From: an uncultured bacterium
Lineage (GTDB): Bacteria; Margulisbacteria; WOR-1; XYC2-FULL-46-14
DNA length: 64,000 nt
Reading direction: 5' to 3'
Assembly (NCBI GenBank): GCA_964421245.1
Contig: CAYQVW010000001.1
Coordinates: 42,888-106,887, forward strand
This document shows, piece by piece, positions 41,197-64,000 of the stretch. Both the position numbers and the translations under genes were made by a program. The notes below the pieces were generated by a model. It was not told the origin of the DNA. It saw nothing but the letters and a program-made list of their open reading frames with translations, and did no database searches. Numbering within the stretch: the first letter of the stretch is position 1; each line of letters begins with the position of its first letter.

Positions 41197-41439
41197 ATGG
41201 AAGTACGTGAAAACGAGATATATACCCTTGAAGAAACCACCTCTCTTTTAAAGATATCCCGGTCTACCTTTCTTCGTTTGATAAAAAAAGGAATTATTAG
41301 TGCATATAAAGTTGGTGGGCAGCATCGGGTTTTAGGAGCAGAGATATTAAGTTTGTTTAAACCATCGGTACAAGATCGTGCTAGGGCTGCATTTAGGAAA
41401 GTTAAAGATAAGATTAAACATAATTTAGAGTCTGTTTAG
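41197..41439 (+). CDS. helix-turn-helix DNA-binding protein (excisionase/MerR-type HTH), first gene of the glycan locus
   Basis: LEETTSLLKISRSTFLRLIKKGIISAYKVGGQHRV HTH_17-like pattern. Confidence 0.6.
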   Translation: MEVRENEIYTLEETTSLLKISRSTFLRLIKKGIISAYKVGGQHRVLGAEILSLFKPSVQDRARAAFRKVKDKIKHNLESV

Positions 41440-41448
41440 AAAGGAGAA

Positions 41449-42240
41449 ATGAGAATGTTAAAGAAAATTTGTATTTGTTTAGTTTTTTTACTGGTTTCTA
41501 ATTTTTGTTTACCGGCTATTGCACAAGTTTCTAGTTCTATACATAATAGGTCTAATTCATCCAGTTCTCTTGTCGATGCTTCAACTGAATATTTTGCTGG
41601 AGACAGGGTTTTGAGGGATAAATATAAATTAGCTTCGGGAGATAGTGTGGCTGTTGATTTAGTAATTGGTGATAATGATTTGGCTATCAAACATGTATTT
41701 GTGATTGGACCAGAGGGAACTATTTATTTCCCTAAGGTTGGAGAAATAAACTTATTTGATTTAACAATCCCTGAAGCAAAGAGCTTGGTTGATTCTCGCA
41801 TAAAAAAGGTTTTTAAGGAGAAATATAGTCTATCTTTTCGTTTGGAAGTGCCAAGGCAGGTTCAGGTTTATCTTTCCGGATCAGAAAGTAAGCCGCTCTA
41901 TGTCGCGAACAAGAGATATGTAAATATTTATGGGGAGGTTGCTAAATCAGGTAGGTTTGAATATTTGCCTGAAAAGAAATTTTCTGACTACATAAGTTAT
42001 GCAGGAGGATTTTCTCGTCAGGCGAATTCCCATGCTTGTTCTATTACTAGGAAGGGAAATAAGTACAAAATAAATGGTTCTGATGTGATATTTAATGGTA
42101 ATGAGAAAAATGACTTAGCAATTATGCCCGGGGATGTTATTAATGTTCCGAAGAATATGTTCTATTTTTCTGATTTTGCTAGTTTTGCTGCTATGGCGTA
42201 TGGTTTATTGGCTTTTTATAATACATTTTTAAAAAATTGA
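41449..42240 (+). CDS. polysaccharide export outer-membrane protein (Wza/KpsD family)
   Basis: SP; Poly_export motifs (YKLASGDSVAVDL, GDVINVPK); C-terminal amphipathic hydrophobic helix FASFAAMAYGLLAFYNTFL. Confidence 0.8.
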   Translation: MRMLKKICICLVFLLVSNFCLPAIAQVSSSIHNRSNSSSSLVDASTEYFAGDRVLRDKYKLASGDSVAVDLVIGDNDLAIKHVFVIGPEGTIYFPKVGEINLFDLTIPEAKSLVDSRIKKVFKEKYSLSFRLEVPRQVQVYLSGSESKPLYVANKRYVNIYGEVAKSGRFEYLPEKKFSDYISYAGGFSRQANSHACSITRKGNKYKINGSDVIFNGNEKNDLAIMPGDVINVPKNMFYFSDFASFAAMAYGLLAFYNTFLKN

Positions 42241-42252
42241 GGAGAAATAAAT

Positions 42253-61363: not shown

Positions 61364-62373
61364 AAAGAGATTCTGGGGTCACAGTTGTTGCAGAAATATC
61401 AGCTAATCATGCTAAGGATTTTAAAAAGGCAGTCTCTTTAATAAAGAAAGCCAAGGCTTGTGGTGTCGATGCTGTAAAATTTCAGACTTATACGCCTGAT
61501 ACAATAACAATTGATGTTCGCAATAAGTATTTTAAGGTTAAGCATCCGGTTTGGGGAGGACAAACGCTTTATGATTTGTATAAAAAAGCTTATACTCCAT
61601 GGTCTTGGTTTAAACGGCTAAAACAGGTTTGCGATGACCTAGGAATTGCGTTTTTTTCAACTGCTTTTGACAAAACCAGTGTTGATTTTCTGGAGACATT
61701 AAATGTCGCAGTTCACAAGATATCTTCTTTTGAGTTGGTTGATCTTCCTTTAATAAGGTATGCGGCCAAGACAAAAAAACCACTTATAATTTCCACAGGA
61801 ATGGGTACTCTTTCTGAAATAAAAGAAGCTGTGAGCACTGCACGCAAAGCTGGAGCAAAAGATATCATTCTTTTGAAATGTGTAAGTAACTATCCGGCTA
61901 AACCTGAGAATATGAATTTAAAGACAATACCTTACATGAAAGAAGTCTTTGATTGTCCTGTGGGGCTTTCCGATCATACATTGGCGAACGAAGTTTCAGT
62001 TGCTTCGGTTGCATGGGGAGCGTGTTTAGTTGAGAAGCATTTTACTCTCTCAAGAACTGACAAGACCCCTGATGCCTTTTTTTCATTAGAGCCTGATGAA
62101 CTGAAGCAGCTTGTTTGCAGTATTAGAGTTGTAGAAAAAGCGATGGGGAAAGTTCATTTTGGAGGATCGGCGGATGAAAAAAAGAGCAGAGCTTTTAGGA
62201 GGTCTTTATTTGCTGTAAGAGATATTAGGAAGGGAGAAATATTTAGTGAAGAAAATATTAGATCCATAAGACCATCCAATGGATTGGCTCCAAAATATTT
62301 AAAAGATCTTATCGGAAAAAAGGCTAAGAAAAGTATGAAGAAGGGAACTCCATTAAGGTGGTCTCATATATGA
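61357..62373 (+). CDS. pseudaminic/N-acylneuraminate synthase family (PseI/NeuB) with C-terminal SAF domain; start refined to MLKRDSG
   Basis: VVAEISANHAKDFKKAVSLIKKAKACGVDAVKFQTY; C-terminal SAF (GEIFSEENIRSIRP). Confidence 0.85.
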   Translation: MLKRDSGVTVVAEISANHAKDFKKAVSLIKKAKACGVDAVKFQTYTPDTITIDVRNKYFKVKHPVWGGQTLYDLYKKAYTPWSWFKRLKQVCDDLGIAFFSTAFDKTSVDFLETLNVAVHKISSFELVDLPLIRYAAKTKKPLIISTGMGTLSEIKEAVSTARKAGAKDIILLKCVSNYPAKPENMNLKTIPYMKEVFDCPVGLSDHTLANEVSVASVAWGACLVEKHFTLSRTDKTPDAFFSLEPDELKQLVCSIRVVEKAMGKVHFGGSADEKKSRAFRRSLFAVRDIRKGEIFSEENIRSIRPSNGLAPKYLKDLIGKKAKKSMKKGTPLRWSHI

Positions 62374-63338
62374 CGGAAATTACTCGTGAAAATTTCATAA
62401 GAAATATTGTCTTTGTAACTGGGTTGACAAGATCTGGTAAGACGATGCTTCTACCCATTGTTTCTAGTATGGAAAGAGTAGAACACGTTGCCATGAATTA
62501 CCTGATGGAGCAGGTGCCTATGATGCATATCTTGGGACTTATTTCTGACGAGGCGGCTACCTGTTTGATGCGATATGCAATTGATGCTATGTTTTATGAT
62601 CAAACTATTGGTAGAAATATTAATTTAAGGTTTGGCGACCTAACCAGTGTGTGGAAATCAAAAGAACCATTAAGTTATTTGAAGAGGCTGTTTACCAAAG
62701 ATGGAGATGTTGCCATGAGGTCTATTGAACAAAAGAAACCTTTGTTCCTTTTACAACTTCATGATGCCCTTTGGCATGCTGATGTATATATTAAGTCTTT
62801 CCCTGATATGAAGATGATTCACATAACCAGACATCCTATTGATATGGTGCACAATTGGCACGAAAAAGGTTATGGCGGAGATTTCTTTGAGAATCCTCGA
62901 AACGCTACTCTTACGATTGAGTGGAAATCAAAGAAATTACCTTATTATGTTTCTGGATGGGAAGAAGAATATTTGAGCATGTCTGAGATTGACAGAGTTA
63001 TACATATGATTAAGAAGTTAGAGGATCGTCACCGTAAAAAACATGATTCCTTATCAGAAGAAGAATGCCGCAAAGTAATGATTGTTTCATTTGAGAAAAT
63101 GGTAACTAATCCTGAAGCTGTTTTGAAAGAAATAACTAAATTTTTAGGTACAACCTTATCGAGGCATAGCTCTCGTATATGTAAGCGAGAAAGGTGTCCA
63201 AGGAGATTGCGTAGAGAAGATAGAGATAGAAAATTAGATGAAATCAAGAAACTTTGTTCACAAGAAGCATTGGCTATATTGGTGTCAATGTCAGATGAAT
63301 ATGATGAATTATATACAAATGAGGGAGTGTATACTTAG
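62370..63338 (+). CDS. sulfotransferase-family protein (start refined to MTEITREN; ATGA overlap)
   Basis: 5'-PSB-like P-loop TGLTRSGKTML and 3'-PB-like ITRHPIDMVHNW. Confidence 0.6.
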   Translation: MTEITRENFIRNIVFVTGLTRSGKTMLLPIVSSMERVEHVAMNYLMEQVPMMHILGLISDEAATCLMRYAIDAMFYDQTIGRNINLRFGDLTSVWKSKEPLSYLKRLFTKDGDVAMRSIEQKKPLFLLQLHDALWHADVYIKSFPDMKMIHITRHPIDMVHNWHEKGYGGDFFENPRNATLTIEWKSKKLPYYVSGWEEEYLSMSEIDRVIHMIKKLEDRHRKKHDSLSEEECRKVMIVSFEKMVTNPEAVLKEITKFLGTTLSRHSSRICKRERCPRRLRREDRDRKLDEIKKLCSQEALAILVSMSDEYDELYTNEGVYT

Positions 63339-63344
63339 AATAAA

Positions 63345-64000
63345 ATGGAAATAGAGAACAAATCTTACTCGAAGGCAGATATGCTCCAAATGTTGAAAGA
63401 GCGGGTCAGCTGTTGTCATATAGAGGACATCTTTAGTTTTACAGTGGTCCATTGGCAGAGATGTTCAGATCAAATTTGTGCAGAGATAATAGAAAAGGTA
63501 TCTTCTCCCAGGATTGTAGTTCGTAGTTCATCTGCCTACGAAGATAAAACCGATGTGTCCAGGGCAGGGTATTTTCATAGTGAGCTCAATGTTCTTCCTA
63601 ATGAGAATAATATAAGAGAGGCTGTGAACAAGGTTGTGCATTCCTATGACAAAGGCGGATATTCAAGCGATGAGAATCAGATTCTCATTCAGCCTCAAAC
63701 CGAGAATATAAAAATAAGTGGGGTTGTTTTTACGCGGCAAATTGAAACTAATGCCCCTTATTATGTTATTAATTATGATGATAGTTCAGGTAGAACGGAT
63801 ACTGTTACTGGAGGTTCGGAGGGGAGGGTTCTTTATCTTTCACATTTTGTTGCTATTTCTCCGAATCATTTGTTTTGTAATTTAGTAAAGGCTATTAAGG
63901 AAATAGAAAATATATATCCTGGTAGAGTCTTGGATATTGAATTTGCCATTACCACAGAAGGAAAACTGGTAATTTTTCAAGTAAGGCCTTTAGCAGCTAA
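63345..64000 (+). CDS. PEP-utilising enzyme, PPDK_N (ATP-grasp nucleotide-binding) domain protein, 5' fragment running off the window
   Basis: VVRSSSAYEDKTDVSRAGYFHSELNV matches the RSSATAEDLPxASFAGQQETxLNV block of PEP synthase/PPDK N-domains; frame open to the window end. Confidence 0.55.
   Translation, partial: MEIENKSYSKADMLQMLKERVSCCHIEDIFSFTVVHWQRCSDQICAEIIEKVSSPRIVVRSSSAYEDKTDVSRAGYFHSELNVLPNENNIREAVNKVVHSYDKGGYSSDENQILIQPQTENIKISGVVFTRQIETNAPYYVINYDDSSGRTDTVTGGSEGRVLYLSHFVAISPNHLFCNLVKAIKEIENIYPGRVLDIEFAITTEGKLVIFQVRPLAA

Follow-up and report, generated by a model that had tools for sequence, protein, structure and literature searches.

A 64,000-nt stretch of DNA from an uncultured WOR-1 bacterium (contig CAYQVW010000001.1, positions 42,888 to 106,887; the whole stretch is called the window here) carries an unbroken run of plus-strand genes from position 41197 to the window end at 64000, as seen in its listing of open reading frames (ORFs). 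Judging from the families and the order of these genes, we consider it fairly likely that they form the opening 23 kb of a surface-glycan island that exceeds 45 kb and is composed of five modules, all on this strand. Positions 42952-106951 of the JGI contig Ga0118720_1000003, of which we read 86 of 349 kb (window included), match the window at 100% identity; on this contig the same-strand island runs for at least 22 kb past position 64000 and is still running where the data stop. A preliminary description of the window had placed a 23-kb glycan locus at 41197-64000. The housekeeping genes that reach up to position 41146 confirm that start, whereas the end lies at least 22 kb further on. All of the genes named in that description are present at their places on the plus strand by the ORF listing and by profiles, and six that it had not listed join them: a short NeuB-family synthase, two NeuA-like cytidylyltransferases, a short-chain dehydrogenase/reductase (SDR), a class-III aminotransferase and an LA_1612-family gene. 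Scores below are bits on profile models, given against the curated or gathering cut-off (NCBIfam/TIGR/PRK equivalogs, Pfam).

From the observed gene content, gene order, families and synteny, we infer the substrates and products, the role of a cupin and an SDR with a CBS pair (CBS-SDR), and the identity of the phosphoramidate transferase in the following scheme. In the first module, an outer-membrane polysaccharide export (OPX) protein, a Wzz-like protein and a fused ABC exporter would carry the polymer out. In the second, cassette A (45048-51648), the short NeuB would join phosphoenolpyruvate (PEP) to an aldose that is probably phosphorylated. The condensation product would pass through the SDR and/or the class-III aminotransferase, then meet a VOC protein, a SPASM-type radical SAM enzyme and a methyltransferase, and be CMP-activated by one of two paralogous cytidylyltransferases, giving a second ulosonic acid. 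In the third, module B (52838-62373), the cupin and the CBS-SDR would supply a 4-keto sugar to PseC in the stead of PseB, with the SDR oxidizing C4 and the cupin acting at C5. A fused PseH/PseG, PseI and an SpsF-like cytidylyltransferase would then follow, WbuX/HisH/HisF would turn an N-acetyl into an acetamidino group and a TylF protein would add a methyl group, the product being a pseudaminic-acid (Pse)-type 5,7-diamino sugar with an acetamidino and perhaps a methyl group. The fourth module, from 62370 on, would make a 3'-phospho-CDP-amidate-type donor by means of a kinase, a C26 hydrolase, a nucleotidyltransferase and an adenosine 5'-phosphosulfate (APS)-kinase-like protein, APSK1. In the fifth, a pyruvate-kinase/ATP-sulfurylase fusion and CysC would make 3'-phosphoadenosine 5'-phosphosulfate (PAPS), and the finishing steps would fall to four sulfotransferase-fold proteins, glycosyltransferases, methyltransferases, a B12 radical SAM enzyme and a dTDP-4-amino-6-deoxyhexose branch. 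Both ulosonic acids and other sugars, including a 4-amino-4,6-dideoxyhexose, would be joined by glycosyltransferases, perhaps the LA_1612 and LIC12162 proteins among them, and the polymer would be decorated with sulfate, phosphoramidate and methyl groups.

Nonulosonic-acid O-antigen/capsule islands, acetamidino formation, donor synthesis for O-methyl phosphoramidate (MeOPN) and PAPS-dependent sulfation are already known as classes. The island is set apart from described systems by the entry without PseB, by the highly conserved and apparently mobile short-NeuB cassette, and by the fact that a single island outside Campylobacterota brings together genes for phosphoramidate and sulfate with those for two ulosonic acids. 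Our specific proposal for the two unusual parts, namely that the cupin and CBS-SDR replace PseB or open a 9-hydroxylated Pse-like route and that the short-NeuB cassette is a mobile unit which turns a sugar phosphate into an undescribed CMP-activated ulosonic acid, methylated and amino- or hydroxy-substituted, is a tentative one. In pathogens, immune recognition, phage adsorption and cell-cell contact are governed by surface determinants, among them nonulosonic acids, acetamidino groups, MeOPN and sulfate; to have these combined in one island of a poorly known environmental lineage suggests an unusually charged, heavily decorated envelope. The cupin/CBS-SDR/PseC triad would explain how the pathway is entered in many genomes that have pseC and pseI without pseB, an entry missed by annotation pipelines, and the short-NeuB cassette would represent a widely shared sugar-acid pathway; both are testable with recombinant enzymes.

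The cupin and CBS-SDR pair at the probable entry to the Pse-type pathway

Module B contains a PseC-class sugar 4-aminotransferase (54758..55942; TIGR03588, 516.6 vs 423.5) and a PseI-class nonulosonic acid synthase with NeuB and SAF domains (61357..62373; TIGR03586, 462.6 vs 340.25), both above their equivalog cut-offs and both as previously described. The synthase reaches 25 bits on the model of DAHP (3-deoxy-D-arabino-heptulosonate 7-phosphate) synthase against 463 on the PseI model, and is thus neither a KDO-8-P (3-deoxy-D-manno-octulosonate 8-phosphate) nor a DAHP synthase. Between the two genes lie a TylF-family methyltransferase (55959..56621; PF05711, 76.8 vs 23), an SpsF-like CTP_transf_3 cytidylyltransferase (56633..57376; PF02348, 136.5), which is the likely CMP-nonulosonate synthetase of the module and has homologues in the same module in loci L090, L092 and L093, and three contiguous and overlapping genes for the acetamidino system. 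The latter encode a PP-loop N-acetyl-sugar amidotransferase of WbuX/PseA type (57369..58526; TIGR03573, 359.9 vs 203.2), a HisH-like glutaminase subunit of WbuY type (58510..59118; TIGR01855, 222.2 vs 105.4) and a HisF-like cyclase-fold subunit of WbuZ/AglZ type (59122..59877; TIGR03572, 256.9 vs 299.7; NF038364, 240 vs 310), so that the trio reported earlier stands, with WbuZ as a best match just under the cut-off. Next comes a 489-aa fusion of a PseG-like hydrolase (residues 3-262; TIGR03590, 122.8 vs 153.55) with a PseH-like GNAT acetyltransferase (residues 333-471; TIGR03585, 33.3 vs 93.1) at 59894..61363. The PseG-PseH fusion had been recognized before, and both parts are indeed best matches, yet neither reaches its cut-off; likewise, the cytidylyltransferase described as PseF/SpsF-like is CTP_transf_3/SpsF-like and falls short on PseF (32.6 vs 205.7). 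The same fusion occurs in a locus of Omnitrophica WOR_2 (L016; 494 aa, PseG 150.3). The gene upstream of the cupin, at 51654..52841, belongs to the LA_1612/Lept_O_ant_chp1 family (TIGR04441, 96 vs 150; precomputed PF27908) and is a candidate transferase; a member of this family is also found near the cupin/CBS-SDR module in locus L099.

The preliminary description read a complete Pse-type pathway from these genes. We found no PseB in the 86 kb of contig examined, and the pathway is therefore not complete in that sense. Positions 1-41 kb of the window hold no Polysacc_synt_2-type gene, and apart from housekeeping genes and an ADP-heptose cluster, the search of the rest of the window and of the downstream region gave just one RmlD-like SDR, which scores 38.5 on the PseB model. 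In the slot of PseB there is a 477-aa protein with a CBS pair and an extended SDR domain (53302..54735), which reaches 100 bits on the GalE model and 31.5 on the PseB model (cut-off 407.75), preceded by a cupin (52838..53284) predicted to be an NDP-4-keto-sugar 3- or 5-epimerase. The cupin, earlier called WxcM-like, is RmlC-like instead (dTDP_sugar_isom, 36.3 vs 27; FdtA/WxcM, 20.3 vs 23).

The pair is conserved as a unit with the aminotransferase. The order cupin (147-150 aa), CBS-SDR (~475 aa) and PseC-class DegT aminotransferase was found in all six contexts (this contig, a marine alphaproteobacterial one, a Desulfobacteraceae one and three metagenome contigs), the genes overlapping or being separated by short gaps. 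CTP_transf_3, NeuB+SAF synthase, acyltransferase or PseG-like genes lie near these triads, no PseB was seen there, and the aminotransferases and synthases that we tested from these loci score above the PseC and PseI cut-offs. Furthermore, the same slot is filled by a true PseB (489 vs 408) in the Omnitrophica WOR_2 locus L016, where PseC, PseG-H, PseI and a short-NeuB cassette follow. The strict synteny and the true PseB in that slot make the cupin/CBS-SDR pair look functionally tied to PseC, and the simplest reading of the sequences is that cupin and CBS-SDR are a non-orthologous displacement of PseB. A literature search for CBS-domain PseB substitutes found none. A two-protein PseB step has a precedent in Pen and Pal of Bacillus thuringiensis, two SDRs that replace PseB on the route to CMP-Pse (PMC8987622), and the SDR domain has a recognizable similarity to Pal (6bwl; 59 bits). 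The two systems differ in that Pen and Pal are both SDRs, Pen having the TDK signature, while the island has an RmlC-like cupin and a CBS-paired SDR with an S-C-S signature. Compared with the PseB-C-H-G-I-F (+PseA) pathway of Helicobacter pylori and Campylobacter jejuni, the island similarly clusters PseC and PseI above cut-off with PseG/PseH-like, CTP_transf_3 and PseA/WbuX-type genes, but has cupin and CBS-SDR for PseB, a fused PseG-PseH and an SpsF-like cytidylyltransferase; its amidotransferase differs from PseA in having dedicated HisH/HisF-like subunits, as in the WbuX/WbuZ glycosyl-amidation families of NCBIfam. The WbuX/WbuZ naming originates in E. coli O145.

What the pair would make depends on the SDR. 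The nearest solved structure to the SDR domain is 6vo6 (134 bits, ~37% identity as counted from the printed alignment), whose PDB name is putative sugar-nucleotide epimerase/dehydratase; several sugar-nucleotide 4-epimerase-type SDRs follow, UDP-glucose 4-epimerases among them, and the dehydratases score far lower (FlaA1/PseB at 34 bits, below Pal). We take 6vo6 to be Cj1427, which in C. jejuni is the C4 dehydrogenase for GDP-heptose. The best PDB match of the cupin is 8dak, a GDP-4-keto-heptose 3-epimerase, and the His of its RGxHG motif is kept. Across 118 aligned members of the CBS-SDR family, SSCSVYG...Yx3K is invariant. Characterized 4,6-dehydratases have TDE or TDK signatures and the 5,6-dehydratase TunA has TCE, whereas a Ser/Tyr/Lys triad suffices for GalE (PMC8987622). 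The protein, described before as a dehydratase/epimerase candidate, thus resembles 4-epimerases and lacks the acid/base pair of known 4,6-dehydratases.

Five points speak against the overall scheme, the first three of them bearing on the displacement of PseB in a true Pse pathway. First, the S-C-S/Yx3K signature lacks the Asp/Glu or Asp/Lys pair of characterized 4,6-dehydratases. Second, S-C-S offers no obvious base for deprotonation at C5, so the product may not be the 6-deoxy sugar of true Pse. Third, the ~260 kb of contig outside the part read, or some other place in the genome, could hold a PseB gene. Fourth, none of the three CTP_transf_3 proteins of the island reaches the PseF cut-off of TIGR03584 (147, 132 and 33 vs 205.7). 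At last, PseG, PseH, WbuZ, and further downstream the C26 hydrolase and APSK1, are all under their curated cut-offs.

The first two of these points, together with the resemblance to 6vo6 and 4-epimerases and that of the cupin to a GDP-4-keto-heptose 3-epimerase, favor an alternative that is somewhat doubtful and is nonetheless the strongest: module B would lead to a product other than true (9-deoxy) Pse, the CBS-SDR oxidizing C4 only, the cupin epimerizing beside the keto group and the PseC-like enzyme aminating C4, so that the 9-hydroxyl stays. The heptose enzymes of C. jejuni (Cj1427 and Cj1430-type cupin epimerases) offer a parallel in their structures and in the sequence of C4 oxidation and epimerization; they differ in that they act on GDP-heptoses with a reductase as the last step, while in the island a PseC-class aminotransferase comes next and a nonulosonic acid synthase stands at the end. 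If the 9-hydroxylated Pse-like sugar is real, sulfate, methyl or phosphoramidate could sit on it. On the other side, the PseC and PseI scores here and in the other cupin/CBS-SDR loci and the genuine PseB in the slot of L016 argue for a shared 4-keto-6-deoxy intermediate; moreover, a net oxidation at C4 would require NAD+ turnover, and 6vo6, which we equate with Cj1427, carries only the general PDB name given above.

The third point underlies an alternative that we regard as unlikely, in which another part of the genome carries the PseB gene and the cupin/CBS-SDR pair just happens to lie beside pseC, being used for a different sugar of the repeat unit such as a 4- or 3/5-epimerized N-acetylhexosamine. 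The extent of the contig inspected (86 of 349 kb), the resemblance of the SDR to 4-epimerases and the genes for other sugars in the island, namely a WecE-like aminotransferase (576 vs 375) and the RmlD-like protein, fit it, whereas the cupin, CBS-SDR, PseC-class order, strict in six of six contexts from unrelated lineages and with no PseB nearby, does not.

The short NeuB cassette and a predicted second ulosonic acid

Cassette A starts with a 282-aa NeuB-family synthase (45048..45896) that is far above the Pfam NeuB cut-off (233.7 vs 22.1) and has the features of the NeuB TIM barrel, its metal-binding His motifs reading GYSGHE and LERHIT; these we presume to correspond to the GLSDHT and EKHFT motifs of N. 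meningitidis NeuB. The protein has no SAF domain and does not attain the scores of full-length equivalogs (NeuB_NnaB, 246 vs 399.65; PseI, 181 vs 340), and its best PDB match is 6ncs, a 290-aa chain deposited as a sialic acid synthetase. About 30% of nonulosonic acid (NulO) synthases lack SAF; they are environmental, and the literature assigns them no function. We rejected the idea that the short NeuB is a truncated pseudogene, since the 282-aa length is kept with 70-86% identity in 76 loci.

The synthase is followed by two cytidylyltransferases resembling CMP-ulosonic-acid synthetases (NeuA-like), CT1 (45909..46649; PseF model, 132 vs 205.7) and CT2 (47419..48168; 147 vs 205.7), which are paralogues with 57% identity. 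A FabG-like classical SDR oxidoreductase, assigned by profile search, lies behind CT1 (46659..47387), and a class-III (ornithine/GABA-type) aminotransferase lies behind CT2 (48165..49535; PRK05769, 293 vs 552). The cassette goes on with a VOC/glyoxalase-fold protein above the Pfam gathering score (49532..49969), a small SPASM-domain radical SAM enzyme (49966..50766; SPASM 39.5, above cut-off; Radical_SAM 27.0, below the gathering score of 29.5) and a Methyltransf_23 methyltransferase with an N-terminal Cys-rich motif (50770..51648; 83.3, above the gathering score).

A scan of GTDB species genomes yielded 355 relatives of the short NeuB, and the neighbor counts below are from the best 80 of them, which are 70-86% identical across many phyla, including Planctomycetota, Stahlbacteria, Thermodesulfovibrionia, Desulfobacterota, Elusimicrobiota, Omnitrophota, Bacillota, Nitrospirota, Leptospirales and Verrucomicrobiota. 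A cytidylyltransferase follows the short NeuB in 66-70 of these 80 loci. A homologous methyltransferase is nearby in 33-41, the VOC protein in 31-32 (identity up to 85%), the class-III aminotransferase in 30-31 (up to 79%) and the SPASM radical SAM enzyme in 22-23 (up to 80%); other neighbors are a xylose-isomerase-like TIM protein (27 loci), a B12 radical SAM enzyme (21) and a class-IV aminotransferase (16). Pse genes adjoin the cassettes only occasionally. This co-occurrence in dozens of genomes assigns the VOC protein, the radical SAM enzyme and the methyltransferase to cassette A, and overturns the former view of them as tailoring enzymes for Pse. In other genomes (L011, L037, L048 and L054), an SDR takes the slot of the class-III aminotransferase, while the window carries both, each behind its own cytidylyltransferase. 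On the basis of these patterns, the short-NeuB cassette is an independent unit, separate from the Pse module. The 70-86% identity of the short NeuB over very distant phyla, and that of its aminotransferase, VOC and radical SAM neighbors at up to 79-85%, is far above the expectation for vertical descent, and the cassette thus looks horizontally mobile among anaerobic and sediment bacteria.

The genes that precede the synthase elsewhere hint at its substrate. Directly 5' of the short NeuB, a KdsC-like phosphatase is present in 26 and/or a GmhA-like SIS isomerase in 24 of the 80 loci, the isomerases being 35-54% identical to the window's own GmhA. The flanking phosphatase and isomerase point to a sugar-phosphate substrate, and the GmhA-type isomerase beside the synthase in 24 genomes suggests that this could be a heptose 7-phosphate, which would give a ten-carbon ulosonic acid. 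It counts against such a substrate here that cassette A of the window has neither the phosphatase nor the isomerase gene. We deduce from the genes that the product of cassette A would be a second, undescribed ulosonic acid, its substrates and final structure being predictions of the same kind; literature searches for a nonulosonic acid cassette with radical SAM and glyoxalase genes, and for ten-carbon ulosonic acids, found none. In other genomes, the surroundings of the short NeuB follow the logic of the Kdo and Kdn-9-P pathways, with an isomerase, a synthase, a KdsC-type phosphatase and a CMP-transferase. The cassette differs from these pathways in that the synthase is of the NeuB family rather than KdsA and the isomerase is GmhA-like, and it adds aminotransferase, SDR, VOC, radical SAM and methyltransferase steps.

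Putative phosphoramidate-donor genes and sulfation genes

The last gene of the window (63345..64000) is the 5' part, 218 of 801 codons, of a PRK05849-family kinase that is cut by the window end; the full protein scores 833 vs 501. It consists of PPDK_N and PEP-utilizers domains and has a GGVASH phosphohistidine motif in its C-terminal part. Described before simply as a PPDK_N protein of the glycan locus, it would instead be the first gene of a phosphoramidate (MeOPN-type) module that extends beyond the window. Directly after it, on the same strand, come a glutaminase-type hydrolase of the Peptidase_C26 family, whose best family is the gamma-glutamyl-CDP-amidate hydrolase (NF045546, 83.7 vs 250), and a 253-aa NTP_transferase protein without a specific model, whose best PDB match is LicC, a CTP:phosphocholine cytidylyltransferase (56 bits). 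PDB sequence searches with these three proteins gave only generic relatives. Further along the same strand is APSK1, a 189-aa APS-kinase-like protein under its cut-off (L094 6611-7180; 120 vs 138.7). The kinase domain of a kinase/cytidylyltransferase/glutamine-kinase fusion shares 46% identity with APSK1 and only 38% with the CysC of the island; between the two paralogues, identity is 36%. Being nearer than CysC to a kinase domain fused to a glutamine kinase, APSK1 is the best candidate for a Cj1415 counterpart.

The chemistry of the Cj1418-Cj1415 pathway to the MeOPN donor is known from C. jejuni (PMC6429109, PMC11800397). The island has the same three-gene order, with a PRK05849 kinase, a class-I glutaminase-type hydrolase and a nucleotidyltransferase, plus an APS-kinase-like paralogue; it differs in that a sulfotransferase-like gene and a pyruvate-kinase/ATP-sulfurylase fusion precede the kinase paralogue and that nonulosonic acids would be part of the acceptor glycan. 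We take Cj1418 to be a PRK05849 member, the island kinase being likened to it by way of the family model. Homologues of the kinase number over 6000; JGI labels some as glutamine kinase, and many archaeal ones are fused to a cytidylyltransferase. The order kinase, hydrolase, nucleotidyltransferase recurs in Leptospira ilyithenensis, an Omnitrophica metagenome-assembled genome (MAG), another metagenome contig and a Vibrio alfacsensis plasmid, and an APS-kinase-like gene (166-172 aa) without a sulfurylase accompanies the set in three of these four contexts, being absent from the Vibrio stretch.

It weakens the phosphoramidate assignment that no transferase of the Cj1421/1422 type or of the Glyphos_transf type was found in the 45 kb of island read. 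A Glyphos_transf protein does adjoin the kinase set in other genomes (L097, L098), and BLAST of the LA_1612 and LIC12162 proteins, ST1 and ST2 (two of the sulfotransferase-fold proteins below) against those Glyphos_transf proteins gave no similarity. That ST1 itself transfers phosphoramidate from 3'-phospho-CDP-amidate, a PAPS-like donor, is only a possibility. A homologue of ST1 with 34% identity lies between the kinase and hydrolase genes of the L. ilyithenensis set. We also considered a general link of ST1 to the phosphoramidate kinase, which was not borne out: the homologue is present in Leptospira, and there is none in the three other contexts. A literature search for a link between MeOPN transferases and sulfotransferases found none.

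We accordingly weighed the alternative that the PRK05849 set makes another CDP- or NDP-activated group and that APSK1, the sulfurylase fusion and all four sulfotransferases serve sulfation. The low score of the hydrolase on the Cj1417 model (83.7 vs 250), the LicC-like nucleotidyltransferase and the lack of a recognizable transferase would fit, and we nevertheless find it rather improbable given the kinase score, the glutamine kinase names, the fusions with cytidylyltransferase and APS-kinase domains, the match of the three-gene order to cj1418-cj1416, and the sulfurylase-less APS-kinase-like genes alongside in three other genomes.

Some of the related loci are worth describing in their own right. 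Locus L095 of L. ilyithenensis (RQHV01000061.1, 98143-118545) is a legionaminic-acid-type cluster joined to phosphoramidate-set genes; the NulO part holds PglD-like, CBS + nucleotidyltransferase, GFO, CTP_transf_3 and WbuX/HisH/HisF genes, and the joined part an APS-kinase-like gene, a PRK05849 kinase, an ST1-like protein, the hydrolase and the nucleotidyltransferase. This arrangement means that the pairing of NulO-acetamidino and phosphoramidate genes is not unique to the window. Leptospira O-antigen/NulO loci (PMC3438082) resemble the island in having multiple NulO synthases and CMP-synthetases in one locus and the LA_1612 and LIC12162 families, and L. ilyithenensis adds the combination of NulO, acetamidino and phosphoramidate genes with an ST1 homologue. 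The Leptospira clusters are instead of the legionaminic acid (Leg)/Neu type with LegB and PtmE-like genes, and neither sulfation genes nor the cupin/CBS-SDR entry were seen there. Locus L098 is the V. alfacsensis plasmid pYa108 (NZ_AP024168.1, 124550-138877), where kinase, hydrolase, cytidylyltransferase and CDP-glycerol glycerophosphotransferase-family genes are divergent from the adjoining cysD/cysN. RefSeq labels the set only as 'PEP-utilizing enzyme' and the like, the kinase has an N-terminal extension of ~165 aa, and the homologue of the 253-aa nucleotidyltransferase is annotated as phosphocholine cytidylyltransferase family. Among archaea, mainly Nanoarchaeota and Woesearchaeota MAGs (P0052-P0119), the PRK05849 homologues are often fused to CTP_transf_like, and P0066 (1143 aa) has an APS-kinase domain in addition; these fusions suggest that a phosphoramidate-donor pathway is common in DPANN archaea.

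Sulfation by the island is well supported by its genes: an ATP sulfurylase, an APS kinase (CysC) and four sulfotransferase-fold proteins (ST1-ST4) above the Pfam gathering scores would suffice for a PAPS-dependent route. Only ST1 lies inside the window, a 322-aa protein at 62370..63338 (Sulfotransfer_3, 46.8; Sulfotransfer_1, 36.7; both above cut-off), and on reading the sequences we judged P-loop-like 5'-phosphosulfate-binding motifs to be present in all four. The sulfate that had been named as a possibility from this sulfotransferase gene is better supported by the larger set. Beyond the window, all genes are on the same strand, numbered here from the 801-aa kinase (gene 1) to a DegT aminotransferase (gene 21). 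After the hydrolase and the nucleotidyltransferase come a 431-aa Sulfotransfer_3 protein (gene 4), a 734-aa fusion of pyruvate kinase, PUA_2 and ATP sulfurylase (gene 5; L008 15159-17363 = L094 4410-6614; sulfurylase domain 406 vs 387 and 344 vs 323), APSK1 (gene 6), a 638-aa LIC12162-family protein (gene 7) and a 278-aa Sulfotransfer_1 protein (gene 8). A B12-binding radical SAM enzyme, a GT1 glycosyltransferase and a methyltransferase (genes 9-11) precede the WecE-like aminotransferase (gene 12, scored above), which is followed by a methyltransferase, the RmlD-like reductase and a GT2 glycosyltransferase (genes 13-15), the fourth sulfotransferase-like protein (gene 16) and a canonical CysC (gene 17; L094 18747-19361; 286 vs 163). 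The part read closes with a methyltransferase and a GT2 glycosyltransferase (genes 18-19), a 143-aa ORF without a family match (gene 20) and the DegT aminotransferase. In the fusion, the pyruvate kinase part is the catalytic domain (residues ~10-343) without the C-terminal regulatory domain; the same fusion is found at 77% identity in a relative (L007, 1533-3722) and at 48% in a marine alphaproteobacterial NulO locus (L090, 10428-12593). It may couple PEP-driven ATP regeneration to PAPS synthesis.

Export genes, transcription and surroundings of the island

The island opens with an 80-aa helix-turn-helix (HTH) protein of the excisionase/MerR type, a possible regulator (41197..41439; TIGR01764 excise, 34.2 vs 28.8). 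Its best NCBIfam match, the magnetosome protein MamR (40.7, cut-off 100), probably reflects the similarity shared by excisionase-type HTH domains. Three export genes follow. The first encodes a 263-aa Wza-like OPX protein (41449..42240), which is shorter than the 380-position PRK15078 polysaccharide export model and has pepcterm_export, PRK15078 and EpsE as best matches, all below cut-off (52 vs 180 in one case). The second encodes a 308-aa Wzz-like chain-length-determinant protein of the polysaccharide co-polymerase (PCP) type without a kinase domain (42253..43179), in which only the N-terminal ~120 residues of Wzc models are matched (Wzc, EpsF and eps_transp at 38-55 bits, below cut-off). 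The third encodes a fused permease-ATPase ABC exporter (43109..45019) resembling HepA (366 vs 725), MsbA (353 vs 602) and PglK (249 vs 1000). As listed, its ORF starts with TTG 71 nt inside the Wzz-like gene; an ATG in the same frame first occurs at 43289, which leaves the real start codon uncertain. The Wza, Wzz and MsbA-like export genes named previously are thus in place, with all three under the cut-offs of specific models. Among the island genes, we did not find the full-length Wza OPX and the Wzc with a tyrosine kinase domain of group 1 capsule-type export. A similar ABC gene adjoins short-NeuB cassettes in 16 of the 80 loci and the cupin/CBS-SDR module in loci L090, L091 and L099.

No Wzy polymerase or initiating transferase was recognized in the part of the island read. 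This, and the fact that Pse and Leg are classic modifications of flagellin and S-layer, would suit an island that glycosylates proteins (flagellin, pilin or S-layer) rather than a polysaccharide; we give this reading little credence in view of the OPX, Wzz-like and ABC exporter genes that open the island, its several GT1/GT2 glycosyltransferases and the O-antigen-associated LA_1612 and LIC12162 families, and no Maf/FlmG-type or flagellin gene was seen in the part read. Very unlikely is a single complete Pse pathway with the VOC protein, the radical SAM enzyme, both methyltransferases, the cupin, the sulfotransferase and the PPDK_N protein all tailoring its product: PseC and PseI above equivalog cut-offs and the PseG/H, WbuX/HisH/HisF and TylF genes interleaved with them in one operon-like unit are what it explains, against the missing PseB, the second NeuB-family synthase with two cytidylyltransferases of its own, the travel of VOC, radical SAM and Methyltransf_23 genes with the short NeuB in dozens of genomes without adjacent Pse genes, and the place of the PPDK_N protein in a separate kinase/hydrolase/nucleotidyltransferase set.

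With the gene starts of the source contig, none of the 24 intergenic distances exceeds 31 nt, and in nine cases the neighboring genes overlap. The single strand, the short gaps and overlaps and the lack of a terminator excess make one long transcription unit plausible, as had been suggested; terminator-like sites in the region are not above the chance expectation from shuffled sequence. A sigma-70-like promoter candidate, TTGACA-16 nt-TACAAT (41156..41183, plus strand; 11 of 12 matches), lies in the 50-nt gap 5' of the first gene, ends 14 nt before the first ATG and is the best plus-strand match within 20 kb. The near-consensus promoter of the preliminary description therefore exists as a site; as promoter-like sites in the region number 65 against 67.4 by chance in shuffled sequence, it is no more than a candidate. 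The window gave no match in scans for Rfam families and tRNAs.

Copies of stretches of the region (7.7-20.8 kb as retrieved) that are 100% identical, one of them 99.99%, are present in at least six assemblies (four JGI, one ENA and one Logan), which indicates one clonal population repeatedly sampled or related samples of one study. For three island proteins, Candidatus Omnitrophota MAGs supply most of the nearest named homologues, with 61-73% identity; the B12 radical SAM enzyme has a match in a Cloacimonetes MAG (74%) that comes narrowly ahead of the Omnitrophica one (73%). By these matches the host, a low-GC bacterium, would probably belong to Omnitrophota, although surface-sugar genes of such islands are prone to horizontal transfer.

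The housekeeping genes at 1-41146 of the window include ScpA/B, a histidine kinase, LexA, DnaE, a NifS-like protein, an LptA-like protein, HldE, GmhB and GmhA, as well as Asd, CysS, SerS, a FemAB-like protein, a Mur ligase, a RelA/SpoT-like protein, MtnA and an FAD oxidase. The ADP-heptose cluster, with HldE (PfkB + cytidylyltransferase), a GmhB-like HAD phosphatase and GmhA (SIS_2), is on the minus strand at 22096-26059, beside the LptA-like gene. These genes for the heptose of the lipopolysaccharide (LPS) core and the LptA-like gene agree with the diderm host proposed earlier and indicate that it makes an LPS inner core. Two large adjacent plus-strand ORFs at 7833-12367 encode a 600-aa protein without a Pfam match and a 918-aa protein with a weak match to right-handed beta-helix/NosD, which may be secreted or surface proteins. 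In the 933-aa protein encoded at 36295-39096 on the plus strand, the RelA/SpoT models match residues ~503-688 only, with 70.7 vs 499 bits.

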